From a virus, in the IMG/VR virus record IMGVR_UViG_3300034069_000595, positions 27,478 through 91,477 of that record: 64,000 nt of DNA; one strand, written 5' to 3'. Under the pieces are notes generated by a model. The model did no database searches. It saw only the letters and a list, made by a program, of their open reading frames with translations, and had not been told where the DNA came from. A program made the translations under genes and the position numbers. Positions 3,465 to 60,085 of this stretch are shown piece by piece (position 1 is the first letter of the stretch; each line of letters starts with the position of its first letter).

Positions 3465-3504
3465 TTGATCATATTTGATTATTGCAACAGCAATATAAGA
3501 TCAA
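3465..3504. promoter_or_regulatory. Operator copy (TTGATC-N6-GATCAA family) plus half site in the early leftward promoter
   Basis: TTGATCATATTTGATTAT at 3465-3482 and GATCAA half site at 3499-3504. Confidence 0.6.
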
Positions 3505-3531
3505 TAAACGTGCCAGCATTTATCGTGCCAA

Positions 3532-3547
3532 GTCGTGATGAAAGGAT
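3532..3547 (+). promoter_or_regulatory. Late promoter motif variant
   Basis: GTCGTGAT-GAA-A-GGA-T upstream of the 3576 operon. Confidence 0.5.
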
Positions 3548-3575
3548 TATTTTACGAACCTTAGCAGCGTGCATC

Positions 3576-3848
3576 ATGAACTTCGGAAGCAAAACCATCC
3601 CTGCGGGACAGACCTTGACCATATCTGACGTCCCGGCCGGTACAGCGCTGGGCGTGAACCCGGGTCCAGGCGGGACAATGCGGGTGCAATATCGGATCAG
3701 CTCGAACGGGCAATTGTTCGACTGGCCATCGGGCCCGGTGACCGCGCAGATGTCTGACGTAACTGGATCGCCCTCATTCCAAGTCGTGTTCTCGGCGCTC
3801 GATGCGGACGGCTTCGCGGAATGGAACTCGCCGAAGCGGCGACCATAG
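3576..3848 (+). CDS. Small beta-rich virion accessory/adaptor protein
   Basis: ORF just downstream of the late motif; resembles small phage adaptor proteins (VNPGPGGTMRVQY..WPSG). Confidence 0.5.
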   Translation: MNFGSKTIPAGQTLTISDVPAGTALGVNPGPGGTMRVQYRISSNGQLFDWPSGPVTAQMSDVTGSPSFQVVFSALDADGFAEWNSPKRRP

Positions 3849-4087
3849 GAGGCAGACCCATACCAACAATATTTCAGCGCGGATCTGCCTCCCTCATGGG
3901 CGGCGCCTCCGCGAGCAAGCGCGGCATGTCAGGCGGCGTTCCGGCCCCGAGTGTCGGCGATCAAAACATGTTCCTCCGTGGCGATGGCACTTGGTCGCCA
4001 CCGCCAGCAGCTGATGCCGCCCTGAGTGTCGATGACCTATCCCTTCCCTTTGACCCCGTTGCAGCGTTCGAGAACGCCATAGGCTGA
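3821..4087 (+). CDS. Small fibre-like protein
   Basis: GGVPAPSVGDQNMFLRGDGTW is a motif typical of phage fibre proteins. Confidence 0.55.
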   Translation: MELAEAATIGGRPIPTIFQRGSASLMGGASASKRGMSGGVPAPSVGDQNMFLRGDGTWSPPPAADAALSVDDLSLPFDPVAAFENAIG

Positions 4088-4090
4088 CCC

Positions 4091-4585
4091 ATGTCTCTCG
4101 TTACCCAAGTCCAAAACCTGATCACCCGCACCGGCACCGAATTCAAGTCGGTGCGGGCGGCGATCGGCAATCTCGCCAATCTGACCACTTCGGCAAAAGG
4201 AGATGTGGTTACGGCAGTGAATGAGGTCCGCGCGCTGGCGAACAGTGCCGCTGGCATGATCAACGACTCGGCAGCCTCGACCGGGACAACGTACTCAAGC
4301 AGCAAGACCGACGCCCAGATCGCAGCAGCGCTCGCCGCCTTCACATCGGGAGCGCCGGCCGCGTTGGACACCTGGAACGAGTTGGTAGCCGAGCTGCAGA
4401 AAGATGCGACGGGCATCGCCGCGCTCACGGCAGCGCTGGGCAACCGTCTGGCGACAGATGCTGTGCAGACCCTCACGCCGCAACAGAAGGCTCAAGCCAT
4501 CGCGAACCTTGGCTCGATCGCAGCTGCTGATGTCGGCGACGTGACCACGGACTTTGTGGCTGCCTTCAATCAGGCCCTCCTGTGA
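4091..4585 (+). CDS. Head-fibre/collar-like coiled-coil protein
   Basis: MSL..R..TEFKSVR..IGNLANLTT.AK..VV.AVNE and APAALDTW.EL motifs of phage fibre/decoration proteins. Confidence 0.6.
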   Translation: MSLVTQVQNLITRTGTEFKSVRAAIGNLANLTTSAKGDVVTAVNEVRALANSAAGMINDSAASTGTTYSSSKTDAQIAAALAAFTSGAPAALDTWNELVAELQKDATGIAALTAALGNRLATDAVQTLTPQQKAQAIANLGSIAAADVGDVTTDFVAAFNQALL

Positions 4586-4995
4586 GCCTGGCCGGCGAGG
4601 TCGTTAAGGGTGTCCTGAGGATCGCAGCGGAGTTCAAATCAGTCAGGACCGCCCTGGCGAGCCGCGTGGCATGCTGGGACGCGCTCGGCCTTATGCCTGC
4701 TCCGGTGGAGTGGCAGGGGACGGCAACCTCTCTGTCGGATGGCACCTGGTCGGTGAGCTTTCCCGCGGGCCTGTTCACCAAGGCTCCGCTCGTGTTCACG
4801 CAGGCAATATCCCCCGATAAGACGGCAGCTGCCACCTATGTCGCTGCGCCATGGCCGTCCACAATCTCTGGCTGTAGCGGCCACGTAGTCACTGGCAACA
4901 TCGTCACCACGCTGCTGATCAACGCCGGCGCCAACGGCCTCAAACTGTCCGGCGCGGGGATCACGGTGAACGTCCTGGCGAAATCTGTGCGCTAG
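4582..4995 (+). CDS. Fibre-tip-like protein paralogous at its N-terminus to the 4091 gene
   Basis: GTGA overlap with the previous gene; MSLAGEV..RIAAEFKSVRTAL; C-terminal lectin/gp53-like beta domain (WSVSFPAGLFTKAPLVF). Confidence 0.55.
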   Translation: MSLAGEVVKGVLRIAAEFKSVRTALASRVACWDALGLMPAPVEWQGTATSLSDGTWSVSFPAGLFTKAPLVFTQAISPDKTAAATYVAAPWPSTISGCSGHVVTGNIVTTLLINAGANGLKLSGAGITVNVLAKSVR

Positions 4996-5086
4996 TCCTG
5001 CGACGCTTCGACTCCCGTGCAAAATGGCTATTCCCCAAAGTCGCTCATCGCAATAGGACGACACCGCTCTCACAAAGGAGTTGTGT

Positions 5087-5368
5087 ATGGGTATAGGTAA
5101 GCGACCGGGATGGACAGCCGCTGAGCTTGAGTTGCTTGGCGGGTTAGCCGCCCACTTTCCACCAGACACCTTGGGCGAGCAGGGCTGTACAGAGGAGGGA
5201 GATCCTTGGTTTGTCTTGGAGCGGCCTGACGGATCAGCTCTCGTGCACTTTGCTAAAATTGAAAAACGCTACGTCAGCGCGACATCGCAGGCCGGTGAGT
5301 TTGATGCTCACGATCAAATAGTGCCGCTGGTGCTGAGATTTCTCCGGCGCAACAACAAGACTGACTGA
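5087..5368 (+). CDS. Hypothetical protein with a TEEGDPWFV...VHFAKI motif
   Basis: AAGGAG RBS; visibly more A/T-ending codons than the structural genes. Confidence 0.6.
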   Translation: MGIGKRPGWTAAELELLGGLAAHFPPDTLGEQGCTEEGDPWFVLERPDGSALVHFAKIEKRYVSATSQAGEFDAHDQIVPLVLRFLRRNNKTD

Positions 5369-5394
5369 CTAGAAATGTAGACTTTCGAATATGG

Positions 5395-5420
5395 AAAACC
5401 CCGCCGGAGCGGGGTTTTTT
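5395..5420. terminator. Bidirectional terminator
   Basis: aaaaccccgc-cgga-gcggggtttttt between convergent genes. Confidence 0.85.
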
Positions 5421-5425
5421 GTGCC

Positions 5426-6016
5426 TTACAGAAGATTTCCGACGTAGGCGTTTGGGTCATCCAGAGCGGCTGCGCGCAGCATCGAGTTGATGTTGGCGTA
5501 GGTGCGGTTGATGAACTCCTGGCCCTCGCTGAAGGCGACGATGCAATTGGAGCGGGTCAGGGAGCCGCTGTCCAGCGCGGCGGTATAAGCTGCCAAGCCA
5601 CCAGCGTCTGGCGAGCGGCCGAGGACAACCTCGTACAGGATGGTGACGAAGGTGCTGTTCGACGAGCTGGGCGAGTAGACGGCCTGGAATTCGGCCGAGG
5701 TTGCCAGGGCGGCGGCAACAGCCTGCACCGCTGCGGTCTGATTTCCGAGGGCATTGCGGTTGGCGACCAGGCTCGCAGCCCAGCTGTCCAAGCCTGCGGT
5801 GTCTGGCTTGCGTCGGAACATTGCCTGGTAGAGGCGGCAGATCGGGCGGACGTTGGAATCCACTTCGCCCTGGCCGATCAACTCTTCCACCATAGTGGCA
5901 TAGGTCGTACCGCTGCCAAGCCGGACGTTGTAGGCCTCAAGGTAACCAGATGGAGCAGAGGGGGTGCGAACAGTCGCGTGCCAGGCTTTGTTAATTTGCG
6001 CGTCATAAACGCCCAT
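5426..6016 (-). CDS. Stand-alone DUF4214 / S-layer-anchor-like protein 1
   Basis: RLYQAMFRRKPDTAGLDSW and FVTILYEVVLGRSPDAGGL motifs; GAGGT RBS before ATG 6016. Confidence 0.75.
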   Translation of the reverse strand: MGVYDAQINKAWHATVRTPSAPSGYLEAYNVRLGSGTTYATMVEELIGQGEVDSNVRPICRLYQAMFRRKPDTAGLDSWAASLVANRNALGNQTAAVQAVAAALATSAEFQAVYSPSSSNSTFVTILYEVVLGRSPDAGGLAAYTAALDSGSLTRSNCIVAFSEGQEFINRTYANINSMLRAAALDDPNAYVGNLL

Positions 6017-6046
6017 GAAGCACCTCAGTACAATGGATGAGGGCAC

Positions 6047-6062
6047 ATGGTCAGGTCACGAC
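6047..6062 (-). promoter_or_regulatory. Late promoter motif
   Basis: GTCGTGAC-CTG-A-CCA-T on the minus strand. Confidence 0.7.
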
Positions 6063-6073
6063 AAATACGGCGC

Positions 6074-6103
6074 AAAAAAAGGCCCACCGAAGTGGGCCCT
6101 TTT
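6074..6103. terminator. Terminator
   Basis: aaaaaaa-ggcccac-cgaa-gtgggcc-ctttt. Confidence 0.8.
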
Positions 6104-6115
6104 ACTGGGTGCTGA

Positions 6116-6715
6116 TCAGGCGGCGACGTCGTGGTCCGTCACCTGGCGGGCATAGGCGTTCGGCACGTCGAAGAAAGCTTCCTTCAAGGTGCGCTCAAAC
6201 GAGGCGTCGAAGCGCCCGATGAACTCTGGCGAGCCGGCAAAGCGAGCCACGGTGCCCGGGCGGGTCCACTGACCGCTGTCAATCAGGTTGACGACATTGG
6301 TGATCTCGCTCGCCTCGCCAGGTCGACCAAGAAGGTCGGTGTACAGCTTCTGGACGAAAAAGATGGTGGTCATGGTCTGCGGAAAGCGAGCCAGGTACTC
6401 AGCCGTGTTCGCCCAGTACGTTTCCATGAAGTAAATGGTGTTCTGGTTCTGGATGCCCCGCAGGATCCCTGCCCACAAATCCAGCCCGGCAGAGTCGGCC
6501 GATCGACCGAATGCAGCTCGATAGAGACGCATCATTTGCAGCGTCTCCAGTTGCACGGTTGTTGCGCGGAACACGTTGCTGAGCACCTGGTCAAGCGGTG
6601 TTCCGGCGTTGAGCATATTGGTCAAGTAAGTTCGAAAATCGGCGGGAACCGTAGTCGAAGTCAGTCGGAAGTACACGGCGTAGATTTTGTTGATTGCAGC
6701 GTCGAATGAGACCAT
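6116..6715 (-). CDS. Stand-alone DUF4214 / S-layer-anchor-like protein 2
   Basis: RLYRAAFGRSADSAGLDLW and FVQKLYTDLLGRPG motifs; GAGGT RBS. Confidence 0.75.
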   Translation of the reverse strand: MVSFDAAINKIYAVYFRLTSTTVPADFRTYLTNMLNAGTPLDQVLSNVFRATTVQLETLQMMRLYRAAFGRSADSAGLDLWAGILRGIQNQNTIYFMETYWANTAEYLARFPQTMTTIFFVQKLYTDLLGRPGEASEITNVVNLIDSGQWTRPGTVARFAGSPEFIGRFDASFERTLKEAFFDVPNAYARQVTDHDVAA

Positions 6716-6741
6716 AGGCACCTCAATTGGGTTGAGGCTTT

Positions 6742-6757
6742 AGTCTGCTGTCACGCC
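6742..6757 (-). promoter_or_regulatory. Late promoter motif variant
   Basis: GGCGTGAC-AGC-A-GAC-T on the minus strand. Confidence 0.55.
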
Positions 6758-7005
6758 ACACATTGAGCCTCAACCTTTTGCGTTCGCGCGCGGTACTGAC
6801 GGGTCCGTTCAGCTTCACACGCACGGCACCAGCTTCGATAGTGACCGACTGACGGAATCCAGCCGAAGCAGGTCTCATCGTGCGGCCACCACTCACCGCA
6901 GCAAGGGCAGAGTTTTTCCCGCCCGTCTTCCCCTTGCCTTGTTGAAAGTTCTATCCAGTGTTGTTCCAGCTGGTTCCTATTTCTTTGCTTCAGTGCGAAT
7001 CTCAT
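6751..7005 (-). CDS. Small C4 zinc-finger protein
   Basis: CPCC..WWP and WCRACE cysteine pairs; basic C-terminal helix. Confidence 0.6.
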   Translation of the reverse strand: MRFALKQRNRNQLEQHWIELSTRQGEDGREKLCPCCGEWWPHDETCFGWIPSVGHYRSWCRACEAERTRQYRARTQKVEAQCVA

Positions 7006-7080
7006 TTTTCTGCATATTCTCCAATGATTGCTGGAGCATACATCAAATATGATCATAGCCTCAAGCGAGCCGCTGAAAAC

Positions 7081-7096
7081 GTCGTGACGGCACTAT
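7081..7096 (+). promoter_or_regulatory. Late promoter motif; predicted leaderless portal mRNA
   Basis: GTCGTGAC-GGC-A-CTA-T, 7 nt before ATG 7104; no SD. Confidence 0.75.
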
Positions 7097-7103
7097 CGCG
7101 GCT

Positions 7104-8744
7104 ATGACTGATATCGCCCTCGAAGTTGCGCACAACCCGAATGCTCCGAAAGATGAGCAGCAGGACGCTATGCGTATCGCGCAGAAAGCCGCGATGCCCT
7201 CGTCCGTCCCGGATATGCTCCCCCTTGTCCAGTACGTGGCCGAGCAGTACCGCGAGCAGGAGTTCGCCAAGTCGCTGTCGAAGCAGAACGTCATCCCCTT
7301 CCCGAGCCGCAGTGCCGAGATGGGCCAGATCGGTATGCAGTCGGTCTGGCTGGACGATCAGCGCACGAACATCCAGGGCGAATGGTACGAGCGGCCGACC
7401 GCATTCAGCTTCGACACCATGCGCACTATGGCGGATAACACCCCGATCCTGGCTTCGGTGATCATGACCCGGCAGCGCCAGATCAAGCGCTTCTGCCGCG
7501 CCAGCGCGGACGGCAAGGGGCCAGGTTTCCAGATCAAGCTGAAGGACGGCGGCGCCAAGGTTGGGGCCGAGGAGCAGAAGAACATTCAGCTCCTGCAGGG
7601 CTTCTTCACCAACTGCGGCTGGGAGAGCAAGCCACGCATCCGCCAACGCCTGCGCCGGGACAACTTCTCCGGCTTTATGGCGAAGCAGATCCGCGACAGC
7701 CTGATCATGGACAGCGCGCCGATCGAGATCGAGTGGAAGCGCGACAAGAGCAAGGGCATCGACGGCTTCTATGCCGTTGACGGCTCGACCATCAGGCTTT
7801 GCAACGAGGTTGGCTACCAGGGCGACGATGAGATCTACGCGCTCCAGGTGCTCGAAGGCCGCATTCGTGCCGCCTACACCTATGACGACCTGATCTACGT
7901 GCCTCGCAACCCGCGCTCCGATGTCCTGGCCGGCGGCTACGGCATGTCCGAGACCGAGCTGCTGATCAAGGTGGTGACGGGCTTCCTGAACGCTTTCACG
8001 TACAACACCAAATACTTCGACTCGAACGCCATCCCGAAGGGACTGTTGCACCTCACAGGCGACTACAGCCAGGAAGATCTGGCCGCGTTCAAGCGGCAGT
8101 GGAATGGGATGGTCAAAGGCATTAACAACGCCTGGACGATGCCGGTGATGGTCTCGAAGAACTCGGAGTCGAAAGTAGGTTTCGAAAACTTCAATGCCGA
8201 CGTGAACGAGATTATGTTCGGCAAGTGGATGACCTTCCTGACGTCAATCATCTGCGCCATTTACGGCATGGCGCCAGACGAAATCAACTTCGAAAGCTTC
8301 ACCACGGGTGCCAGTTCGCTCTCCGGAAGCGACACCGAGGAAAAGCTGATCAACTCGAAGGATAAGGGTCTACGCCCTCTCCTGTCCCACTACGAGGATC
8401 TGCTGAGCGACTACATCGTCGGGGAGTTTGGCGACAAGTACGTGTTCCGCTGGACCGGCCTCGACGAGAAGGATCCGAGTCAGCTCTGGGCTGAGGAAGT
8501 CGCCCTAAGCACCTGGAACGAAGGCCGAAAGGCGCGTGGCTGGGATGAGATCAAGGATGAGATCCTTGGCAATGCTCCGCTGAACCCGAACCTAATGGGC
8601 GTCTACATGCAGGCCAACATGCCTGATGCGGCGCCAGGTGACGATCAGGGTGACGGCGACGACAAGCCGCCGAAGCCGAAAAAGCCCGGCGATGACATGG
8701 CGAAGGCTTTCGGGCTGCCTCCCATCTACAAAGTCCAGCCGTAG
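7104..8744 (+). CDS. Phage portal protein
   Basis: HK97/Herelle-type portal features (VDGSTIR, RNPRSD..GYGMSETELL, F.SNAIPKGLL); first gene of the head module. Confidence 0.9.
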   Translation: MTDIALEVAHNPNAPKDEQQDAMRIAQKAAMPSSVPDMLPLVQYVAEQYREQEFAKSLSKQNVIPFPSRSAEMGQIGMQSVWLDDQRTNIQGEWYERPTAFSFDTMRTMADNTPILASVIMTRQRQIKRFCRASADGKGPGFQIKLKDGGAKVGAEEQKNIQLLQGFFTNCGWESKPRIRQRLRRDNFSGFMAKQIRDSLIMDSAPIEIEWKRDKSKGIDGFYAVDGSTIRLCNEVGYQGDDEIYALQVLEGRIRAAYTYDDLIYVPRNPRSDVLAGGYGMSETELLIKVVTGFLNAFTYNTKYFDSNAIPKGLLHLTGDYSQEDLAAFKRQWNGMVKGINNAWTMPVMVSKNSESKVGFENFNADVNEIMFGKWMTFLTSIICAIYGMAPDEINFESFTTGASSLSGSDTEEKLINSKDKGLRPLLSHYEDLLSDYIVGEFGDKYVFRWTGLDEKDPSQLWAEEVALSTWNEGRKARGWDEIKDEILGNAPLNPNLMGVYMQANMPDAAPGDDQGDGDDKPPKPKKPGDDMAKAFGLPPIYKVQP

Positions 8745-8776
8745 TCATCCGAACGTAAATTTCCAGCGAGGCAGAC

Positions 8777-9109
8777 ATGAGCGTCAAAATCAAAACCGTT
8801 ACAGGCCGGACTCAGGCGCAGGGCGTATTCGTCATTGCTCTCGACCGAAATCACTCATCCATCCAGATTGATGCCGAGACTTCCGCGAAGGCTCAAGGTG
8901 GAACGCTGAAGCTTCAGTTCGTCTCGCCAGGCATGTCGGTTGCGAAGGATTTTCTCGGCGCCACTGGATCCGCTGTTGTGATCGACCTAGCAAAACCTTA
9001 CCCAGTCGTATTCAAAGACCTTAGCGTAGATCAGCTAATCGTCACTCCGATCGGGTTCGATGCTGACAAGTCCTTCAGCGTTGGCATCGTACTCGGCGGG
9101 CAGCTCTGA
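8777..9109 (+). CDS. Small beta-sandwich virion protein
   Basis: ORF coupled to the downstream SGNH gene. Confidence 0.55.
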   Translation: MSVKIKTVTGRTQAQGVFVIALDRNHSSIQIDAETSAKAQGGTLKLQFVSPGMSVAKDFLGATGSAVVIDLAKPYPVVFKDLSVDQLIVTPIGFDADKSFSVGIVLGGQL

Positions 9110-38889: not shown

Positions 38890-39140
38890 GATATCTGGCA
38901 CTGGCCATCGCCCTGATGCTGGGCGGCTGCGGCACAACTTATGAGTTCAGGGTTGATGCCGATCAGGCAAAGGCCGATCGAGCGCTGACAGAGACTTGCG
39001 ACATCGTGCCGGACCCGCCGTCCCGTGGATCGTCGTTCGGAACGGTCTATGAGTTCGGCAACAAAATGGTCGGGCTGTACGGTGAGTGCGCGGTACGTGA
39101 CCGCGCGAAGTACGATTACATCAAGAGCCAGGGGCACTAA
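38886..39140 (+). CDS. o-spanin (Rz1-like lipoprotein)
   Basis: LGGC lipobox; YGECAVR motif. Confidence 0.7.
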   Translation: MRYLALAIALMLGGCGTTYEFRVDADQAKADRALTETCDIVPDPPSRGSSFGTVYEFGNKMVGLYGECAVRDRAKYDYIKSQGH

Positions 39141-39367
39141 GCCCGCTGGGCCGCGGCCTTCTCCTGGAGCGTCTTGCACCCGACGCAGATGCGAAAACCG
39201 TGGGACCGCCTGGCGTCCGGCATGTCATCGCCGCAGCTGTCAACGACGCAGAACTCCGGACCGTAGCCGGGCTCACCAGGTGCATATTTCACGGGCGCCG
39301 GCCGCGACCGGTTGTTGCGTTCCCACTCCAGCAGCTCGACCGCCTGCGTTTGATCTTCCAAAGACAT
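39137..39367 (-). CDS. TraR/DksA C4-type zinc-finger protein
   Basis: C..C.DDMPDARR....ICVGCK; 76 aa. Confidence 0.75.
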   Translation of the reverse strand: MSLEDQTQAVELLEWERNNRSRPAPVKYAPGEPGYGPEFCVVDSCGDDMPDARRSHGFRICVGCKTLQEKAAAQRA

Positions 39368-39438: not shown

Positions 39439-40749
39439 TCAGGCAGCGAGCTTGAACGCCATGGCCGCCGGGGCTTTCGCCTCGACGTTATCCGCCAGCC
39501 AGGCGGACCACTTATCCATCGCGGCAGTCATCTCGGGCAGGTAGTCGGCCCTGTCGTAGTTCTTCGAGCCGGTGTCGTTCTTCGCGTGCTGCTGGATCAG
39601 GTCGCGGGTGAAGCGATCGACACCAGCGTCATGGGCACGCGACTTCCAGGTTCGTCGGATGTCGCGGGTCTGGAAGTGGTCGAGCTTGCAGCCCTCGCTG
39701 TCCAACCAGCGGGTGATGGCGCGCCCTACCAGCCTGAAGTCCATCATCTCGCCCTGACCGTTGTTGAACAGGGGCCCGTCGCCAAATTGCATAATCAGCT
39801 CGCGCAGCGGCTCGATCGCCTGCGTCGGCAGCGGGATCGTATGGGCGCGCTTGCGGCCCTTCGTTTTCTCTTTGGGCATCTTCCACAAGCCGTTCAAGAG
39901 GTCGATGTCGGCGCCGTCGATCCGCAGCGTCTCCTGCACGCGCTGCCCGCAGCAGATGAGCATGCGGATGCAGATCGCAATCTTCTGGTTGAACACCTCG
40001 GCACCCGGGTCGCTGGCTTTCCAAAGGATCTTCAGCTCGGCGGCATCGAGGTTCCGGTCGCGGGTTCCGACTGCCTCGGGATCTCGTGCGACGTCGGCGG
40101 CCGGGTTGCGGGTCAAGGTCCAGGTGTACTGCACCTTCGCCGTGTAGTCGTTCGTGGACCGGATCGCCCAGTTGTAGGCCGAGGAGATGTAGCCGCGCTG
40201 CTTGTCGGCTGCTCCACGGTGGCCCCTTTGGAAGAACTCGGCCACGTGGGCGACCACGTCCTTCGGCTGCACGTCAGCCGCCGGCGTATCACGCCCGAAG
40301 GCCTTCGCCGCTGCGTACCTGCCCGTCAGCAGCGCGCGCTCGACGTTGATGGCGCTGGCCTTGCCCTTGGCCCGCATGTGGGCCACGTAGCCCTCGAACA
40401 CCTCCGCAACTGATCCAGGCTTGGCGAGGTTCGGATCGACCGGCTCGCCCTGATCGGCTGCCTTGACGGGCTTCAGGGCAAGGGCAGGGTCATGGCCCTG
40501 AGCAATCTCGGCGAACTTGGTGCGGGCCAGGTCGCGGGCCTTCTCGGGCGGCATGTCGGAGGTCCGGCACAGGCTCAGTTTGCGCGCTGTCCGTTCGGCC
40601 GTCTTGGTCCGATATCGGATCACATAGGCCTTCCGGCCGCTAGCCTGGACACGGACGCCGAAGCCCTCCAGCTCGCTGTCCCAGTGGCACACGTAGCCCG
40701 TCGCGGGGGCTGCCAGCTTATCCACAAACGCCTTCGTCAGTTTCGGCAT
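39439..40749 (-). CDS. int: Tyrosine integrase with arm-binding N-terminal domain
   Basis: KLTKAFVD...WDSELEGFGVRV arm domain; CGQR, RDIRRT, H and YDRADY catalytic motifs. Confidence 0.93.
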   Translation of the reverse strand: MPKLTKAFVDKLAAPATGYVCHWDSELEGFGVRVQASGRKAYVIRYRTKTAERTARKLSLCRTSDMPPEKARDLARTKFAEIAQGHDPALALKPVKAADQGEPVDPNLAKPGSVAEVFEGYVAHMRAKGKASAINVERALLTGRYAAAKAFGRDTPAADVQPKDVVAHVAEFFQRGHRGAADKQRGYISSAYNWAIRSTNDYTAKVQYTWTLTRNPAADVARDPEAVGTRDRNLDAAELKILWKASDPGAEVFNQKIAICIRMLICCGQRVQETLRIDGADIDLLNGLWKMPKEKTKGRKRAHTIPLPTQAIEPLRELIMQFGDGPLFNNGQGEMMDFRLVGRAITRWLDSEGCKLDHFQTRDIRRTWKSRAHDAGVDRFTRDLIQQHAKNDTGSKNYDRADYLPEMTAAMDKWSAWLADNVEAKAPAAMAFKLAA

Positions 40750-40956
40750 GATGGTCTCTTTTGTCGGTCGTCCGGTGCTCGATCGCGATCGAACTCCTTG
40801 GGTTGCACGCCGGAGAAAGCTGGGCCCAATCGGGCCCCGACTTTCGCGACATGGCAGTGAATTTACGGGGTGCAACGGCGGGCCGAAACCCTGTTAAGCC
40901 GTTGATGCAATGATCATAAATGATCAATCGGTAATTGGCGAGATTTTTCCGAAAGC

Positions 40957-41003
40957 GACTACGAATCTGGGGGTCAGAGGTTCGAATCCTTTCGGGCGCG
41001 CCA
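40957..41003 (+). other. attP core: 3' half of tRNA-Arg(ACG)
   Basis: GACT-ACG-AATCTGG GGGTC AGAGG-TTCGAAT-CCTTT CGGGCGC G CCA: anticodon loop, T-arm and CCA present, 5' half absent; beside int. Confidence 0.88.
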
Positions 41004-43912: not shown

Positions 43913-44185
43913 TCAGTTGATGCCGTCTTTCAGGACTTTGCCAGCGACGAACTTCGCCACCTTCTTCGCCTCGATCGGCACTGGCGCCCCGGTTGCTGGG
44001 TTGCGGGCGACGCGGGCGGCGCGGTCGATCCCTTTGAATTTGCCGAGGCCTGGCAGAGGCACTTCCTCACCGTTGCGCAGCAGGGCGATGGTTTCATGCG
44101 CCAGCGCGTCCAGGACGCGGGTGACAGTGGCCTGGCTCTCGTTGGTGCGGGTAGCGATGCTGGCGATCAGGGAATGTTTGCTCAT
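43913..44185 (-). CDS. HU/IHF-family DNA-binding protein
   Basis: GLGKF...RAAR.ARNPATG..V.I...VAKFVAGK.LKD. Confidence 0.92.
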   Translation of the reverse strand: MSKHSLIASIATRTNESQATVTRVLDALAHETIALLRNGEEVPLPGLGKFKGIDRAARVARNPATGAPVPIEAKKVAKFVAGKVLKDGIN

Positions 44186-45540: not shown

Positions 45541-45579
45541 GTTTTCACCTTCATTTATTGGTGCGTTGATTATAAATGA

Positions 45580-46965
45580 TTATTCAGCGCTGTCGGTAGC
45601 CTGAATGTTAAAGTCTTCGCCGCTGACTGTAGTGACGAACAACTGCAGCCCGGACTCAAGGATCTGTCTGCGGAATTCGTCGAACGCCTCAGGATCCAGA
45701 CACTCAAGGCGGTCTACGCAGCAGATGCCCAGCTCACCGGCGCGCAACTTGGCGATCTCGACCGCGATCTGGACCTGCTGGGCGGTGTTGAGGCGGTCGA
45801 ACACCACGCCATCGCGGTAGATCTCGCCGTCGATGATTTCCACGCCAGGGATCGGCAGCGACTTCAGCAGCTCCAGCTTGTAGGCGTCGATGTCGTTCAG
45901 CGCCTTCGTCTGGGCCTCTACGTCGCTCTGCAACTCCTCCAGCTCGGACTCCATCTGTTTGACTGTCTCCAGAGCCTGCTCACGCTTGGCATGGGCGCTG
46001 CGATTGGTCTTGATCGACTCCAGCGTCTGGTTCAGCGGCGTGACCTTGTCGGTATGCGCCTGGATGGTCTTCTCGCGCTGAATGCCTGCCTTGCCCTCGA
46101 ACTCAGTGAACGCCTTGTTCAGGGCGTCAACCTCGGCAGTGGACGCAGCCTTGGCCTCATCGATCTCAGCCTGAGCCTTTGCGCGGATGGCGTCGATCGT
46201 CTCCTGCAGGGTGGCGCGCAGGACATCGACCTTTCCCTGGTTCTCGGCGCGCAGACCGTCGAGCTTGTCGCGGACGCGGTTCAGCTCCTTGTCCTTGGCG
46301 ATCGTGGCTGCCTCGACCTGCGCCCGCAGCTCATCCTCGTTCCCCTCGGCGCCACCAGGCACATCGGGCATCGCCAGGCGCAGCTGGTTGATCGTGCTGT
46401 CCTTCTCCTTGACGGCGCGGTTCGTGCCGGTGCGCTCGTCGAACACCTCCTTGCGAACGAAATCGATCAGGGCCAGCCCGCCGATCGAATCGTCCTGGAA
46501 TGGGGGTCGACCGCTGATCTCCTCCAGGCGCTTCAGGTCGACGTTGATCGGCATTGCTTCGAGCAATACCTTCACGCGGTCCTTCTTCGGCGCATCCAGG
46601 AACTCGATCGGGTTCACGCTCAGGGTGTCGGTCAGCTGCTGGATGAACTCGCCCGGCTTGCCGACCTTCTTGCCATCGGCGTCGGTCACGTCCGTGGTGC
46701 TACGGGCCTCGGCGATGCGCTTCTTGATCTCGGAGCCGTCGTCCAGCACCAGCACGATCTCGCCCTTGGTCTCACCCTTGCGCAGCAGCGTGGCGTCATG
46801 ACCCTTGCCGGTCGCCGCCTTGATGGCTTCGAGGACGCTGGTCTTGCCGGTGCCGTTCTTGCCGCGAATGTCGTTGAAGCCGGCCGGGCTAAACTCCAGC
46901 TCGTCAATGCCGAGGATGTTGGAGATTTTCAGGTGCGCAATGCGCAAGTGGTTTTCGGTGGTCAT
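45580..46965 (-). CDS. SbcC/SMC-like AAA ATPase
   Basis: Walker A GKNGTGKTS, long coiled coil, degenerate signature LNTAQQ and Walker B CVDRLE. Confidence 0.85.
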   Translation of the reverse strand: MTTENHLRIAHLKISNILGIDELEFSPAGFNDIRGKNGTGKTSVLEAIKAATGKGHDATLLRKGETKGEIVLVLDDGSEIKKRIAEARSTTDVTDADGKKVGKPGEFIQQLTDTLSVNPIEFLDAPKKDRVKVLLEAMPINVDLKRLEEISGRPPFQDDSIGGLALIDFVRKEVFDERTGTNRAVKEKDSTINQLRLAMPDVPGGAEGNEDELRAQVEAATIAKDKELNRVRDKLDGLRAENQGKVDVLRATLQETIDAIRAKAQAEIDEAKAASTAEVDALNKAFTEFEGKAGIQREKTIQAHTDKVTPLNQTLESIKTNRSAHAKREQALETVKQMESELEELQSDVEAQTKALNDIDAYKLELLKSLPIPGVEIIDGEIYRDGVVFDRLNTAQQVQIAVEIAKLRAGELGICCVDRLECLDPEAFDEFRRQILESGLQLFVTTVSGEDFNIQATDSAE

Positions 46966-47957: not shown

Positions 47958-48100
47958 TGGTGTTTGCCTCGGTGGATGGGTGTGAGGCAAAGGATAGCGT
48001 CAAATTTGAATAACGCGCAAGCATTTACAGGCGCTTTTCACGCGAAGTACCTGAATTGACCGACAGTTACTTGCGATTACCTATAAAAGCTTTCACCCCA

Positions 48101-48118
48101 TTGATCAAATAAGATAAA
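48101..48118. promoter_or_regulatory. Operator copy in the divergent promoter region
   Basis: TTGATCAAATAAGATAAA, 17/18 to the perfect copies. Confidence 0.7.
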
Positions 48119-48149
48119 CTGGCCCGACATTCACTTGGCTGAGACCACC

Positions 48150-48488
48150 ATGAGCGGGCAGAAAACGACAGAAAATAACGGCGCTGAACCACAGGGCTTC
48201 CAGGCGCTCTTTTATGGGCACCTCGATGCTCTGGAGCAGCGCGCTCACGCGGTAGGTCTGACCCTCACCGATATGTGCCGTGACGCCGATGTGGCGCGGG
48301 CGACCCCGGATCGCTGGCGCAAGAAGCTCCCGAAGACGATCCAGAACGTCTGCGACCTGGAAGCCGTCGTGGTGAAGGCCGAGCGCGAGGATGCGAAGGA
48401 CGCCGCGAGGCTCGAAGCCCGCGACCCTGACCAGCCGCCCGCGCCGGACACCCGAGCTGCGCTGCTGGCGGCACGCGCCCGCAACTGA
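48150..48488 (+). CDS. Cro/XRE-like HTH regulator
   Basis: LTLTDMCRDADVARATPDRW helix-turn-helix; first gene of the rightward operon. Confidence 0.6.
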   Translation: MSGQKTTENNGAEPQGFQALFYGHLDALEQRAHAVGLTLTDMCRDADVARATPDRWRKKLPKTIQNVCDLEAVVVKAEREDAKDAARLEARDPDQPPAPDTRAALLAARARN

Positions 48489-54320: not shown

Positions 54321-54333
54321 GCTGGGCAGCGGT

Positions 54334-54513: not shown

Positions 54514-54583
54514 AATCCCCTCGCATAAAAAAGCCCGGTCAGTGCCGGGCGGGTTGATTGGTTCATGGTGGCATCACTAGTGA

Positions 54584-54748
54584 TTAGCGTGGCAACCTGG
54601 TCAGCTCGATGTCGCAATCGTTCCAGCCTGCCAGCCACCAGGCCCAAAGCCGGGTCATGGGCTTGTGGGGCACAGTGTCTTTGGCCTGGTTACGCCTGCG
54701 CTCGCTTTTACCGTCGTAATAGGCGCCGGGCAGCTGCTGGTTACTCAT
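54584..54748 (-). CDS. Rmf/CrpP-fold-like 54-aa protein
   Basis: AYYDG...P...R..WWLAGWND; manually translated. Confidence 0.55.
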   Translation of the reverse strand: MSNQQLPGAYYDGKSERRRNQAKDTVPHKPMTRLWAWWLAGWNDCDIELTRLPR

Positions 54749-54875
54749 GGACGCGCATCCTTTCCACGAACACCGTCCAGCGCTCGAAGGAATTAATCGG
54801 GCTGCTGCCGAATGAGTGAAGGCCCAGGCCCGCGCATTCCCACAGGCCTTTCCAGTATTTTATGTGAGGTTTCAT
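54741..54875 (-). CDS. 44-aa hypothetical protein (MKPHIKYWKGLWEC)
   Basis: ATGA overlap with the upstream ORF. Confidence 0.5.
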   Translation of the reverse strand: MKPHIKYWKGLWECAGLGLHSFGSSPINSFERWTVFVERMRVHE

Positions 54876-55033
54876 CGCGGCCACGCCTTGTGCGAGGTGT
54901 AGTTGTGGAAGCGCATCGACCAGTTGCTGTAGCCGCTCAGGGCCATGGCTGGATGTGCGACCAGATCGTGCAGGATGGCCCACAGCCGGCGCTCGCCTGT
55001 GTTCTTGCAGGCCTTGTTCGGGTCGGTTTTCAC
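54872..55033 (-). CDS. 53-aa hypothetical protein (KTDPNKACKN...LHDLVAHP)
   Basis: GTGA overlap, coupled in the operon. Confidence 0.55.
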   Translation of the reverse strand: MKTDPNKACKNTGERRLWAILHDLVAHPAMALSGYSNWSMRFHNYTSHKAWPR

Positions 55034-55389
55034 GGCTCACCGCCTTGCGCAGCCGCCGCCGCGGCGCTGTATCCGGCCATTACGGTGTCGAGATCCGCCA
55101 TGTTGCGGTCGGACACAGATGCGTAGACCTTGGCTGCAGGAACCCCCCGAGCAAACAGCCTGGCGCCTTCCTGCTCAGGCGTCTCTAGCTTGGGTTTACC
55201 CTCCTGGCGACGCTCATAATCCTTCCAGTTCGCGCACGCCAACCAGCCGTAGAAGCGGCGGTTTAGACTGGCGTCACGGAACCGACGCATGTTCGGGTTG
55301 TTCGTCATGCCCTTAGCAAACTGAGGCTTGAAGCGATCGCCACAGTTGGCAATAAAGTCTCTCAGCTCCTTTTCTTCATCGACAGCCAT
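55030..55389 (-). CDS. Hypothetical early protein
   Basis: Overlap-coupled ORF in the leftward operon. Confidence 0.6.
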   Translation of the reverse strand: MAVDEEKELRDFIANCGDRFKPQFAKGMTNNPNMRRFRDASLNRRFYGWLACANWKDYERRQEGKPKLETPEQEGARLFARGVPAAKVYASVSDRNMADLDTVMAGYSAAAAAAQGGEP

Positions 55390-56171
55390 TATTCACCATC
55401 CTTCATGGCTGGCTTCAGCTTCAGATTGCAGCGAGTGCAGGCCGCTGAATGTCCGCCTTGGGTGATTACGCGAGGGTTGCCTGGCTCTAATACGCATTGG
55501 CAGAGCTTTGCGGTCTCCTTAGCCTTGAGCCATTCCTTGAAATCAGCCCATTCTTCGACCGATACGCCCAGTTCTTCGCGCAGGGTCTTTCCAGGGGTGG
55601 CTGGCACAGATTTGGGGGCGAGGTACTGCTTAACGTCGGTGCTCAGGTCAGGGAATCGACCGAAAGCGCCTGCCAGATCGCCTCTCTCAATCAGCTCCCG
55701 CGCCTTGGTCAGTTCGGATTGCAGGTTTTCAGCGTAGTCCTGCGCCTCGATGCAGAGGTTCTTCTGATGCGTGAGTTCGTCGTTGTGGGCATCGCGAGCC
55801 AACGAGGCGAGATGAAGATCGGCGGTCAGGCGGGTGACGTGGATGCGGTCTATCAGTTCGACAACCTCAACAGCGCGGCCGAATCTAGCATGATGCTTCA
55901 GCGCGTCCTCTACGAGTACCGCATGTTCGTGGTACTTCGTTGAGTGGCCTTCGACAGCTACACGCCACGCCAGCACTTCCACATCGCCAGCAGGCGGCAC
56001 AGTCGCACCGCTCGACGCCGCGTAACCGACGTTGGTGTCTTTGAGGATCGTCGGCTTGACGACCGCGGCGCTCGGTTTTCCAGCGCCGAAGCGACCAGGG
56101 CAATCAGTAGCATGCCACTCGGGCGCAGCGCTGAAGCCGGCCAGGCAGTTGCAAAGGGTGAAGCGGCTCAT
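55389..56171 (-). CDS. Hypothetical early protein with coiled coil and Cys motifs
   Basis: Overlap-coupled; Ead/Ea22-like mosaic character. Confidence 0.55.
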   Translation of the reverse strand: MSRFTLCNCLAGFSAAPEWHATDCPGRFGAGKPSAAVVKPTILKDTNVGYAASSGATVPPAGDVEVLAWRVAVEGHSTKYHEHAVLVEDALKHHARFGRAVEVVELIDRIHVTRLTADLHLASLARDAHNDELTHQKNLCIEAQDYAENLQSELTKARELIERGDLAGAFGRFPDLSTDVKQYLAPKSVPATPGKTLREELGVSVEEWADFKEWLKAKETAKLCQCVLEPGNPRVITQGGHSAACTRCNLKLKPAMKDGE

Positions 56172-56755
56172 ACCGCACCGCCATCAGCAGCCGGCGCGGG
56201 TTGGAACTCGATCGCCTTGCACAGCTTCCGAGCATGATCGAGAAGTGGCGCCGACCAGTCGCGACCAACGCCGTCGTCAAAGGCGAACAGCATGCCGCCT
56301 AGAGCAGTTTCCAGCTCGGCGACCCGTTCCAGCAGCGCAACCTCGCGGCGCTCCGCATCATTGCAGTCGGCCACGGCCACGTCGGCACGGACGCGTTCTG
56401 GCGCGCTGGCCGCTTCGAGCAGCTGATCGCTTTGAGCCCTCAGCGCCGCCAATGCCCACGCCATCAGGCCCGTGGTGTTGCCAGGGCGAATGGCGCGGGC
56501 GTTGCCGACCAGCCAGCTTTGCAGCTCGGCGGCCTCGGCATTGTCGTCGTGGCGACGCTGCTGGGGAGTGACGGGCGCGCGCAACGGCTGGCGCGCTGCG
56601 GCGTCGTCAGCGATCACGGCACTGACAGGATCATCGCCGCGGCAGAAAGCCAGGCGTTCGGTTGGGTTCATGTTGCTGTAGTCGATCTGGCGGACTGTCG
56701 CGCACGAGCAGGTCAAGCGTCCTTGGTTGCAGTCACACATTTTCGCTGCGTTCAT
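56168..56755 (-). CDS. Hypothetical early protein
   Basis: CDCNQGRLTCSC N-terminus; GAGG RBS; directly after the operator/promoter. Confidence 0.6.
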   Translation of the reverse strand: MNAAKMCDCNQGRLTCSCATVRQIDYSNMNPTERLAFCRGDDPVSAVIADDAAARQPLRAPVTPQQRRHDDNAEAAELQSWLVGNARAIRPGNTTGLMAWALAALRAQSDQLLEAASAPERVRADVAVADCNDAERREVALLERVAELETALGGMLFAFDDGVGRDWSAPLLDHARKLCKAIEFQPAPAADGGAV

Positions 56756-56800
56756 TTCCCTTTCCTCGGTGTGTTGTTTGATGCCCAAATAATAGCGCCG

Positions 56801-56818
56801 TTGATCAAATAAGATCAA
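56801..56818. promoter_or_regulatory. Operator, perfect copy, overlapping a leftward sigma70-like promoter
   Basis: TTGATCAAATAAGATCAA; on the minus strand TTGATC-N18-TATTAT. Confidence 0.8.
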
Positions 56819-56851
56819 CGGCGCAGGTAGAACTGTTTGGAATAAGGAAAG

Positions 56852-57040
56852 CTATTTACAAGCAAATTCCTTGTGCTTCTGCGGGTACTGCTCGGGCGGC
56901 AGCAGCAAGCCCTTGTCATCGGCGAACGCCTTACGAACGATCATGCACTGATGCAGTGTGGTCTTCGCCGGCAGTTTGACTTCCATGGTGGTGCAGTCGA
57001 GTTTCGCCGCGCTGGCGCACAGCAGGATTTCAAGGATCAT
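56852..57040 (-). CDS. 62-aa Cys-containing protein
   Basis: ATGA overlap. Confidence 0.5.
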   Translation of the reverse strand: MILEILLCASAAKLDCTTMEVKLPAKTTLHQCMIVRKAFADDKGLLLPPEQYPQKHKEFACK

Positions 57041-57669
57041 GGTCGGTTGTCCTGGCCGCAGTTGCGGCAGTCGTATTGGAAGCGCTGGCGATCGGAGACG
57101 AAGCGTCCGCAACCGCCGCAGTTGAACACCATCTCGCGGGCGCGCTGAGGTCTGGGAAGCTTGATGCCGGTGCCGAGCAGGGCCTGCCTCAGATCAACAT
57201 CTTGGCGGTGAACCAGCCGGCGGCGGATTGCGTCGATATAGTCGGCAGACCAGATCTTGCGGCTCCCTCCCATGAGGCCTCCGGCGAACTGCTTCCTGGC
57301 GTCCTCGATCGACAGGTGCGCTGCCCGTCCGAGATCTTCGGTCACCTGCCCCTTGTTCCAGCCGATCCAGTAGACGTCGTTACCGTTCCAGTCGCCTGGC
57401 ACATGCACGTAGACGCGACAGCCTGGCATCAGCAGCGCATCGCTCGCGGCCTCATCCATAACCTGGTGGTCGACGCCGTAATGCGCCCGAGCGTCGATGT
57501 AGTCCTTCGGCCACGGGACATCGGTGTCGCGGTGGCTGGAGGCCTGCTCGGCGGTGAACAGCTCGGCGCCGTCGAGATCCGTGACGTAGCCGCGGCGATC
57601 TTTGCCCCAGAACTGCAAGCCGTCGCCAACATGGCTGCGGCTGTCCTGCAGGTAGAACAGGCGGGTCAC
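57037..57669 (-). CDS. Conserved prophage protein with duplicated domain and C-terminal Zn ribbon
   Basis: FYLQDSRS.VGD...FW...GY.TDL; CGGC...CRNC. Confidence 0.7.
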   Translation of the reverse strand: MTRLFYLQDSRSHVGDGLQFWGKDRRGYVTDLDGAELFTAEQASSHRDTDVPWPKDYIDARAHYGVDHQVMDEAASDALLMPGCRVYVHVPGDWNGNDVYWIGWNKGQVTEDLGRAAHLSIEDARKQFAGGLMGGSRKIWSADYIDAIRRRLVHRQDVDLRQALLGTGIKLPRPQRAREMVFNCGGCGRFVSDRQRFQYDCRNCGQDNRP

Positions 57670-58283
57670 ACAGCACCGCCTGCGGCTGTTACGGCATCGA
57701 TCTCCTCAGATTCCTTCTCGATCTGCCAGCGTTTCACCTCGGTCCAGCCGGCCGGAACCTCCCAGAGCAGGTGATCCAGTTCGCGATCGAAAGTGGTTTT
57801 GGCTGCCCGGTCGACTTTGTACTGCGCGAGCTTTTCGGGATCGACGTCCTTCCACGGAACGCTGACGTACCAGATGGGCGTCGGCTCGCTGAAGCCCCAC
57901 ACCGTGGGCGCATACCATCGATTGCCGTGAGTGAGGCAAGGCAGGCCCGGCGTCAGCTCTACTAGCTTGAGCGCATTTTCGATCGGCTCAGGGCGCGGCA
58001 GTGAGTCGATTTCCTTCCAGATCTCAGCACCTGGCCCACGGCGGCGTGGCACCCACATGCGGTGCTTCTGGATCAAGCGATAGACCGTGGTGTCTGGGCG
58101 CTCCTTGAAGATAAAGCCGGCGAACTGACCAGTGTGGTCGTAGTTGTTGACCTGGCTGGCGCCGTACTTGTCGCCCAGCTCCTTGAACAATTTCCCGGCA
58201 GCGTTGCGCAGCTCGAACAGGCGAGCGATTTCGTCAACAACAGGCCCTTCGGTGATGCGGAAATAGCGTTGATATACGGACAT
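57666..58283 (-). CDS. Hypothetical early protein
   Basis: Overlap-coupled ORF, natural composition. Confidence 0.65.
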   Translation of the reverse strand: MSVYQRYFRITEGPVVDEIARLFELRNAAGKLFKELGDKYGASQVNNYDHTGQFAGFIFKERPDTTVYRLIQKHRMWVPRRRGPGAEIWKEIDSLPRPEPIENALKLVELTPGLPCLTHGNRWYAPTVWGFSEPTPIWYVSVPWKDVDPEKLAQYKVDRAAKTTFDRELDHLLWEVPAGWTEVKRWQIEKESEEIDAVTAAGGAV

Positions 58284-58293
58284 AGGTAGGGTC

Positions 58294-58440
58294 TCAGTTC
58301 AGGTGGTAGCCGCCGCACTTGGTGCAGCGCTTCGGGGTCACAGTGACGCGATCGCGCCGGTAGATCGCAGACGCCGCTGCGGTCGCGCTCTCGACACTGG
58401 CGAAACGCTTGCGGGGGTGGCAGGCGTGGCGCTCTGGCAT
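58294..58440 (-). CDS. 48-aa zinc-finger-like protein (C..RKRF...RCTKCGGYHL)
   Basis: GGAG RBS; manually translated. Confidence 0.55.
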   Translation of the reverse strand: MPERHACHPRKRFASVESATAAASAIYRRDRVTVTPKRCTKCGGYHLN

Positions 58441-58484
58441 GGCGATGCACTCCAGGATGGGCGCCGGAGCGCCCGGGTGGGGGA

Positions 58485-59606
58485 TCAGATGTGGCAGTCG
58501 TAGACCGACAGCAGGGTTTCATCCGGCAGGCCATCGAGCAGCTTGCCCAGCTCTGTCAGCCAGGTGTTGTCGTCCTTCTCGTCGGCGACCATGCCCCACC
58601 AGCCCATCGAGCCACGCTCGTGCCAGACGCCGTCCTTCAGGATCGCGAAGGTCGAGGCTGACTTCAGACCGGAGAGGCGGATGTAGGTCTCGCGATCGAC
58701 CAGGAATTCGTCCGGGCCTTCCCAGCTGCGCGTCGCTTCCTTGTAGGCCAGCACGCCAGCCTGAGCGTGGTAGACGTCGCGAGCAGCATTAATTCCGCCG
58801 GGCAGCTCAGGGGTCTCGCCGAGGTATTTGGCGCGCAAGGTTACCCAGTCGGCGACCTGCGGATGCAGCGCCAGGATCGCGGCAGCGCGATCATATTGTT
58901 CGGCGGCCTTCACTTCGGCATCGACGCGCATTCCGTCAAAGTCGATGTCGAGCTTGAACGCTTGGTCGGCGGTACCCTCAGGAGCGCCCGAGGTCATCAA
59001 GCCAGGCTTGCCGGTGATACCGTTGGTGCGTGGCTTCATCTTGAAGAAGCCTGACCAGCGACCGCCCAGCTGATGCCAGTCCCACTTGCGGTTCGGGTTG
59101 GTGCGGCGGACAACCTTGGTGACTTCGCCGCCTTCCGTCAGCACGTAGCCGTATTTGTGATCGCCCTCGATGTCGATCGGGGTATCTTCGTTGGCTTCGC
59201 TCATGCCGTGGTAATCGCACAGATGCTCGCGCAACGTCATGATTTCTGGAGTCGGGATCTCCAGCTCGACGTAACCGTCAGGAATATTATGAACGGTACG
59301 GTTGGACATGATATCGCCGGGCTTGTACTCGGGATTTGGAACCTGGAAAAGATTCGACCATTTGCGGATGAGTGCGCCGTGCACGGGGTGGATCACTACT
59401 TCCTTCTGCTGCTCGCCGTTCATCAGCGTGCCTTCGGGAATCTGCACCATCGACATGGTGTCGTTCGCGTATTCGGTGCGCTTTTCTTCGGTCTCGTCGA
59501 GGTCTTGAACGTAGCGGTCGTTTGTGCCGGTGCATTCAAACTCGTGGAACGGTGCCAGTTGCTTTTCTGGATCCTGGCCGATGACCAGAACTGTGAAGTG
59601 GCTCAT
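58485..59606 (-). CDS. Conserved phage protein (MSHFTVLVIG family)
   Basis: NPNRKWDW..LGGRWSG and GEWHE.G.MGWWG-like motifs; AAAGGA RBS. Confidence 0.75.
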   Translation of the reverse strand: MSHFTVLVIGQDPEKQLAPFHEFECTGTNDRYVQDLDETEEKRTEYANDTMSMVQIPEGTLMNGEQQKEVVIHPVHGALIRKWSNLFQVPNPEYKPGDIMSNRTVHNIPDGYVELEIPTPEIMTLREHLCDYHGMSEANEDTPIDIEGDHKYGYVLTEGGEVTKVVRRTNPNRKWDWHQLGGRWSGFFKMKPRTNGITGKPGLMTSGAPEGTADQAFKLDIDFDGMRVDAEVKAAEQYDRAAAILALHPQVADWVTLRAKYLGETPELPGGINAARDVYHAQAGVLAYKEATRSWEGPDEFLVDRETYIRLSGLKSASTFAILKDGVWHERGSMGWWGMVADEKDDNTWLTELGKLLDGLPDETLLSVYDCHI

Positions 59607-59692
59607 ATCCTTTCTCTCTTGAGTGCCAGCAGCGGGCTGGCTCCGTTACCGCGAAACCCCGCACTCGGCGGGGTTCGTTGATAGGGTGAGGG

Positions 59693-59860
59693 TTAGCGGA
59701 GGCTGGCGACCTGGGCGCGAGCATCGCTGTCATCAAGCTGACGCTGCTTGGTGAGCTTCGCCAGCATCGGGGATACCGGGGTCGCGGCGCGCACGCGTGC
59801 TTTGCTGTGCTTCTCGATCAGATCAGCCGCGGATGGGCGTTTCGGTTGAGGATGGGACAT
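59693..59860 (-). CDS. 55-aa basic protein
   Basis: GGAG RBS; followed by a GC hairpin. Confidence 0.55.
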   Translation of the reverse strand: MSHPQPKRPSAADLIEKHSKARVRAATPVSPMLAKLTKQRQLDDSDARAQVASLR

Positions 59861-60023
59861 TGTGTTGCTCCTTGGTGGCGTGGTTACCGGTCTGAGTTAC
59901 CGGCACGGTTACGGTTGATTGGGTCGGCTTGCTGAACGTCCAAGCCAGGCACAGAGCCAGCAGCACCACACCAGCCCACAGACCGAAGTCATCAACGTTT
60001 TTGCGGGGCTGTTTGTCTGTCAT
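59823..60023 (-). CDS. Small single-TM protein
   Basis: AGGAG RBS; one hydrophobic segment. Confidence 0.6.
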   Translation of the reverse strand: MTDKQPRKNVDDFGLWAGVVLLALCLAWTFSKPTQSTVTVPVTQTGNHATKEQHNVPSSTETPIRG

Positions 60024-60067
60024 GCTGCTTGCTCCTGTGTGCTTTTGTTGGAGCAATTATTGCTCTA

Positions 60068-60085
60068 TTGATCAAATAAGATCAA
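60068..60085. promoter_or_regulatory. Operator, perfect copy
   Basis: TTGATCAAATAAGATCAA, identical to 56801-56818. Confidence 0.8.

Follow-up and report, generated by a model that had tools for sequence, protein, structure and literature searches.

A dispersed, conserved 18-bp palindrome at predicted non-late promoters of a Touem01-like phage is most likely a repressor operator

The 64,000-nucleotide stretch analysed here (the window) comprises bases 27478 to 91477 of one 93,589-bp phage contig (IMG/VR record IMGVR_UViG_3300034069_000595; about 61% G+C) and carries dispersed copies of an 18-bp palindrome, TTGATCAWATWWGATCAA (pattern TTGATC-N6-GATCAA). The closest named relative is Pseudomonas phage Touem01, with approximately 78–81% identity across most of the genome length; the authors who described Touem01, a myovirus of 91.6 kb (Toucanavirus emiw), predicted it to be temperate from an integrase and a ParA-like gene (PMC11256456). 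Remoter relatives are Pseudomonas phages Dolphis and Jeremy, Bordetella phage PHB04 and Aeromonas phage ST4, and a literature search found no paper on either promoters or regulation in the Touem01-type phage group. Gene calling based on G+C content at third codon positions (GC3) overlooked some genes (e.g. parA), and gene maps were checked against the Touem01 annotation. The palindrome sites (listed without strand), the promoters, all assigned from sequence by a sigma70 scan and reading of the flanks, and the associated genes are as follows, in window coordinates unless marked as genome coordinates.

56801 to 56818: exact site; its distal TTGATC is the −35 of a predicted leftward promoter; identical in Touem01.
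60068 to 60085: exact site; −35 of a predicted leftward promoter with −10 AATAAT at 60056–60061; identical in Touem01.
48101 to 48118: site matching at 17/18 positions, TTGATCAAATAAGATAAA; in the spacer of the predicted rightward promoter of the 48150 operon (−35 TTCACC, 48092–48097; −10 TAAACT, 48115–48120).
47996 to 48013 (genome 75473): degenerate site, 10.4 bits; in the spacer of a predicted leftward exonuclease-operon promoter (−35 TTGCGC, 48020–48015; −10 TATCCT, 47996–47991).
45566 to 45583: degenerate site, TTGATTATAAATGATTAT; contains the −10 TATAAT (45574–45569) of a predicted leftward promoter with −35 CCGACA; 18/18 identical in Touem01.
40910 to 40927: one-mismatch site, ATGATCATAAATGATCAA; between the start of the integrase gene and the attP core; 18/18 identical in Touem01.
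7039 to 7056: degenerate site, TACATCAAATATGATCAT; leftward ATGATC-N18-AGCAAT ahead of an 87-amino-acid HNH/endonuclease VII-like gene; Touem01 ortholog TTACTCAAATTAGAGCAG.
3465 to 3482: degenerate site, TTGATCATATTTGATTAT; in a divergent gap; Touem01 ortholog ATGATCATATTTGATCAA.
56818 to 56789, minus: promoter from the sigma70 scan, TTGATC-N18-TATTAT, with −10 TATTAT at 56789–56794, facing the gene that starts at 56755.
60085 to 60056, minus: promoter from the sigma70 scan, TTGATC-N18-AATAAT, facing the gene that starts at 60023.
45596 to 45569, minus: promoter from the sigma70 scan, CCGACA-N16-TATAAT, with its −10 inside the 45566 site.
48150 to 48488, plus: P0001, a small helix-turn-helix (HTH) protein of 112 amino acids, first gene of the helicase-SSB-primase operon and best candidate binder of the palindrome.
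39439 to 40750, minus: tyrosine integrase with an arm-binding domain (Pfam PF13356 and PF00589).
40957 to 41003, plus: attP core, a tRNA 3' end including CCA, identical to the 3' 47 nucleotides of a tRNA-Arg(ACG) gene.
3533, 7082, 10518, 12291, 16426, 18732, 22154, 28187, 32204, 35269, 36067 and 36719, plus: TCGTGA(C/T), a late-promoter-like motif upstream of structural-gene starts.

The exact sequence TTGATCAAATAAGATCAA occurs twice in the window with the same centre, at 56801 and 60068, against 0.01 matches expected by chance, and none of 100 shuffled windows contained two or more exact matches. An earlier note, made from the letters of this DNA, had listed both exact copies, the 17/18 copy at 48101 and variants at 3465, 7039, 40910 and 45566, and all of these coordinates are correct. 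Its placement of the copies in intergenic gaps also holds, as every copy in the window lies between open reading frames, with the 45566 copy overlapping the stop codon of the upstream gene; the gene behind that copy, which it had called a recombinase, encodes an unannotated 362-amino-acid protein without demonstrated recombinase identity. Outside the window there is a perfect copy at genome 92239 (TTGATCATATTTGATCAA) and good copies at genome 9737 and 20047, while weaker copies lie at genome 634, 3226, 75473 (window 47996) and 92764. The tally over the 93.6-kb genome is 11 strong sites, all of them intergenic, and three weaker ones. A whole-genome scan with a symmetrised matrix found 14 sites of at least 10 bits, ten of which are the sites the matrix was trained on, compared to 0.8 in shuffled sequence. 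All 12 genomic copies of the central 10-mer TCAWAWWWGA fall within palindrome sites, as do all nine copies in Touem01.

Dyad symmetry is perfect in the half-sites at 56801, 60068 and genome 92239. The two exact window copies additionally share a 17-bp box, TAGAAC.GTTTGGAATA (56828–56844 and 60095–60111), which stands 9 bp from the palindrome and, reading leftward, upstream of the −35. This box is found at only these two places in the genome, is conserved in Touem01, and could be an UP-like element or the site of a second regulator.

We found the motif in the orthologous gaps of Touem01, where eight pairs of sites are identical at 138/144 positions (96%) within the 18-mers compared to 315/480 (66%) in the 30-bp flanks on each side. 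To look further afield, 39 related viral loci and nine loci from bacterial genomes were gathered with the P0001 protein as query, which makes the presence of P0001 among them universal by construction. In 35 non-redundant related loci (625 kb), TTGMTC-W6-GAKCAA occurs 18 times at no more than one mismatch and not once in ten shuffles, and each of ten complete related viral genomes (84–98 kb) carries 2–13 dispersed copies at no more than two mismatches, with zero matches to a reversed-pattern control. Phages and prophages from alpha-, beta- and gamma-proteobacteria share the motif in near-identical form, and a sequence comparison places a perfect palindrome with the sequence of the 40910 site in phage Jeremy. 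Half-sites tend to covary (TTGCTC with GAGCAA, TTACTC with GAGTAA), and both types can share one genome; this covariation fits a symmetric dimer. The 18-bp palindrome is thus real and conserved.

We then considered how the sites lie on the predicted promoters, and found three layouts. In the first, the site supplies the −35, as at 56801, 60068, genome 92239 (TTGATC-N18-CACAAT), genome 9737 (TTGCTC-N18-CATAAT) and 7039 (ATGATC-N18-AGCAAT), and most of these copies are followed by a common TGCTCC...ATCAAC stretch. This layout bears out the proposal of the earlier note that TTGATC doubles as a −35, since the sigma70 scan lists TTGATC-N18-TATTAT leftward from 56818 and the same plan recurs at 60068. 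In the second, the site occupies the spacer, as at 48101 (TTCACC/TAAACT, 17-bp spacer), genome 20047 (TTGCGC/TAAGCT) and, leftward, 47996 (TTGCGC/TATCCT); distant relatives and Aeromonas phage ST4 likewise have a site in the spacer upstream of their 48150 homolog, and elements akin to the 47996 site stand at the same place in relatives. In the third, seen only at 45566, the site lies over the −10. The structural genes carry a separate motif, TCGTGAC, found 12 times on the plus strand just before gene starts between 3533 and 36719, so that the palindrome singles out the non-late class. At 3465 and 7039 the two motifs come within about 70 bp of each other in opposite orientation. As predicted from these assignments, the sites cover the core of nearly every non-late promoter in differing registers, and this varying register fits a repressor operator better than an activator site or a promoter element.

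Our preferred explanation, to which we give a probability of roughly 60%, is that the palindrome serves as the operator for a dimeric DNA-binding protein, encoded by the phage, which represses the non-late promoters of host-sigma70 type. Each non-late promoter core would hold one site, and a dimer bound there would keep RNA polymerase off, covering the −35 plus spacer at 56801, 60068, genome 92239 and genome 9737, the spacer at 48101, 47996 and genome 20047, and the −10 at 45566. The weaker, half-degenerate operator at the P0001 promoter would provide negative autoregulation, and through the 40910 site by attP the integrase region would be controlled likewise.

The same promoter geometry bears on the nearest alternative, a positive element read by a phage activator or a sigma-redirecting phage protein that defines an early/middle class. 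Such an element would explain why the motif marks one temporal class while late genes carry another and why the best copies have TTGATC as their −35, and the 18-bp spacers and weak −10 hexamers could signal promoters that need help. However, the offset from site to −10 varies by up to approximately 15 bp among promoters, where an activator or a promoter element normally requires a fixed position, and at several promoters the site covers spacer or −10 sequence, at which a bound protein usually obstructs polymerase. We therefore regard activation as improbable.

As for the protein that would act as the repressor, the best candidate is P0001, which has a clear HTH with a recognition helix motif (RATPDRW) invariant in 16 homologs, and which is encoded by the first gene behind the divergent region with two sites (47996/48101). 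In Jeremy, Dolphis and ST4 the orthologous protein bears the annotation "SaPI-like transcriptional repressor". A profile search against solved structures gave a marginal match to a TetR-type HTH (E 0.16), and the structure model of P0001 has a mean predicted local distance difference test score (pLDDT) of 74.5. A Pfam search of 83 early-region open reading frames recognised only AraC-family and HU-family DNA binders and, at E 0.001, no CI, Cro or XRE family.

Several observations weigh against repression by P0001, or against repression altogether. P0001 has no curated-family match above threshold, its sub-threshold hit being to the Cro/C1-type HTH_26 (E 0.19), and the fold matches of its model are weak (Z below 5; Foldseek, VIA), comprising lambda CII, XRE regulators and restriction-modification controller proteins. 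It occurs in all ten complete relatives that were checked for motif copies, the sole DNA-binding candidate to do so, but this universality follows from the sampling, leaving the absence of other candidates as the only informative observation. Its gene is co-transcribed, with no terminator between, with those for helicase, SSB and primase, which is awkward for a lysogeny-maintenance repressor, and its own promoter retains only the left half-site in distant relatives. Several sites (40910, genome 634) have weak −10 hexamers. Finally, the analysis shows where the sites lie, how far they exceed chance, that they are conserved and that they overlap promoter-like hexamers, and from this it infers protein binding, repression, the binder and its role. 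The earlier note had proposed that the cognate repressor is either the 48150 protein or encoded outside the window; the 48150 protein is plausible as an HTH protein and leads the candidates, its family and fold matches are weak, and our identification of P0001 as the binder is tentative, at somewhat less than even odds.

Other candidate binders fared worse. The AraC-like regulator (genome 8729–9607) was undetected in five of the ten complete motif-bearing relatives, as was the excisionase-like HTH_17 protein P0021 (44215–44433) in the same five, and the HU-like protein (43913–44185) was undetected in four of the ten. The relatives without these candidates still bear 4–13 sites, and the same search detected P0001 in every genome tried (G006 to G010, with G003 left out). 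The small ParB-like partner of ParA was rejected because it is present only in this phage and Touem01, while the motif is lineage-wide.

The lineage is temperate and integrates at tRNA-Arg, because it combines an integrase, an attP core that equals a tRNA-Arg 3' end and an integrated relative. The 47-nucleotide identity is with the tRNA-Arg(ACG) gene of the alphaproteobacterium Microvirga lupini (L051, positions 2469 to 2545); the rest of the phage looks Pseudomonas-type. In Microvirga lupini the tRNA gene is followed directly by a phage right arm, with a 48150 homolog 7.5 kb further on, and other relatives sit in bacterial contigs or carry a provirus classification. The 40910 site, standing between the integrase gene and the attP core, would stay beside the integrase gene in a lysogen.

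This position invites a second alternative, namely that P0021 or the HU/TF1-like protein binds the palindrome as an architectural or recombination-directionality site, chiefly at attP and only secondarily at promoters, much as P2 Cox or 186 Apl would. The attP-adjacent 40910 copy is 18/18 identical in Touem01 with flanks at 45/60, several relatives have close variants 5–9.4 kb upstream of their P0001 gene, P0021 weakly matches excisionase/regulator families, and the binding of SPO1 TF1 at early promoters is a precedent. Excisionases, however, usually bind direct repeats rather than palindromes, and the failure to detect either protein in four to five of ten complete relatives that retain 4–13 sites makes this reading still less probable than activation.

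Conservation across hosts raises a third alternative, in which a conserved host regulator binds the palindrome and couples early phage transcription to host physiology. The motif is nearly constant across alpha-, beta- and gamma-proteobacterial phages and prophages, and its half-site resembles FNR and IHF core elements. The FNR box is TTGAT-N4-ATCAA and the CRP-type box TGTGA-N6-TCACA. In this palindrome 8 bp (N8) rather than N4 separate TTGAT from ATCAA, and on this spacing we rejected an FNR/CRP-family box; the IHF element WATCAANNNNTTR is likewise unmatched. We know of no host regulator with the specificity of this palindrome, and a conserved phage protein accounts for the conservation equally well, leaving host control an unlikely explanation that ranks below the architectural one.

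An RNA hairpin or terminator between operons, or a partition (centromere) site, is very improbable: the 56795–56824 copy, extended by GCGCCG/CGGCGC, forms a 12-bp GC-clamped stem (−22.7 kcal/mol) followed by a U-rich tail, but the remaining copies fold weakly (−1 to −9 kcal/mol), which places the shared property at the DNA level, and although a ParA gene is present, the par operon bears its own CTGCAAG repeats and its small partner protein is confined to this phage and Touem01. We accordingly rejected an intrinsic terminator or structured RNA for all copies but the one at 56795–56824, the only stable hairpin, and a parS centromere, since CTGCAAG repeats and not the 18-mer flank the par operon. 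The 56795–56824 copy might serve as an additional terminator of the upstream gene.

Returning to the repressor operator, we compared its layout with known systems. The earlier note had likened it to the dispersed P1 C1 design, and the likeness holds for the arrangement, with many single operators at unlinked operon promoters of a ~94-kb temperate myophage genome that has a par gene, unlike the clustered lambda OL/OR; it does not extend to the protein, as a tblastn search of the genome detected no C1 homolog (best E 0.78). P1 operators are asymmetric 17-mers (ATTGCTCTAATAAATTT), whereas the sites here are symmetric 18-bp palindromes, and the lineage of this phage differs further in integrating at a tRNA-Arg gene. 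The P1 operator ATTGCTCTAATAAATTA matches the genome 9737 copy aTTGCTCAAATAAGATC at 13/17 positions (P1 94166–94740 compared), probably because both converged on TTGCTC, which resembles a −35, with an AT-rich spacer after it. The system resembles lambdoid CI/Cro and P22 c2 in its 17–18-bp dyad sites over the −35 or −10, here presumably read by an HTH dimer, and in a divergent control region with two sites (47996 and 48101). In contrast to lambda OL/OR, there are no tandem tripartite arrays; the sites are single and genome-wide, the closest pair (47996/48101) being 105 bp apart. The IncP KorA/KorB system likewise places one palindromic operator type at many promoters of a large mobile replicon for coordinate repression, but it belongs to plasmids and its operator sequence is unrelated; the likeness drawn here is one of layout. 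Foldseek ranked lambda CII first for the P0001 model, though without significance (E 0.87), and CII is also a small HTH protein with an SRW/DRW-type recognition helix that acts at −35 regions, including the int promoter; it is, however, an activator on direct repeats (TTGC-N6-TTGC), whereas the palindrome here covers the spacer or the −10.

The earlier suggestion that adenine methylation of GATC modulates binding found no backing. Relatives often have GAGC for GATC, which indicates that the tetranucleotide is not the conserved feature, and GATC occurs 839 times in the genome. The three methylases comprise two of PF01555 and one of C5 type, and none belongs to PF02086 (the Dam family). Taken as a class, the palindrome is most likely a known type of element, a phage repressor operator, in a little-studied phage lineage.

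The earlier note had read the layout as an immunity design; the operator may serve lysogeny maintenance or a Cro-like early shut-off. Co-transcription of P0001 with helicase, SSB and primase speaks against a pure maintenance repressor, and the near-invariance of operator and recognition helix across hosts speaks against the palindrome system setting immunity specificity. A bolder reading, which we consider doubtful, is that the ~80-amino-acid HTH family of P0001 is an uncharacterised master repressor across 85–98-kb temperate myophages of alpha-, beta- and gamma-proteobacteria, silencing every non-late promoter and the integrase region via one palindrome as a P1-like immunity network built on an unrelated protein. 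If so, the near-constancy of operator and recognition helix would leave immunity specificity to be set by something else, such as an antirepressor. What is gained is a testable map of early transcription, with about a dozen promoters, one operator type and few candidate regulators, for little-studied large temperate myophages (Toucanavirus/Phabquatrovirus-like) whose hosts include plant-associated Pseudomonas, Bordetella, Aeromonas and others. Because the design is conventional, the value lies in annotation and in a clear experiment, not in a new principle.

Several further features accompany these sites. Between the terminase and the 3465 site, the minus strand at 943–3407 encodes a C5 cytosine methylase (603 amino acids) and a 192-amino-acid protein (phrog_37671); this cassette looks like an insertion, as the Touem01 annotation has one small gene at that place. 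Adjoining the integrase gene, 39140–39367 (minus) encodes a DksA/TraR-like zinc-finger protein (phrog_54, E 2e-7). In plasmid records a search matched the SSB gene alone, so that no plasmid form of the lineage is on record there. Outside the window, at genome 23592–24567, ParA (212 amino acids counted from an internal Met) and its 98-amino-acid partner are 98–99% identical to those of Touem01, compared to a genome average of about 80% between the two phages; the upstream parA start used in Touem01 is followed in this phage by a stop at codon 2. The CTGCAAG/CTTGCAG repeats that flank the par operon are likely its centromere. Also outside the window, genome 92585–93032 lies between the leftward promoter at genome 92239 and rightward genes, and holds the weak 18-mer copy at 92764. 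Within these 450 bp fall 18 of the genome's 86 GTTAC/GTAAC pentamers, flanking 130 bp that are 31% G+C and contain nested tatatc/gatata repeats, and the region is origin-like.

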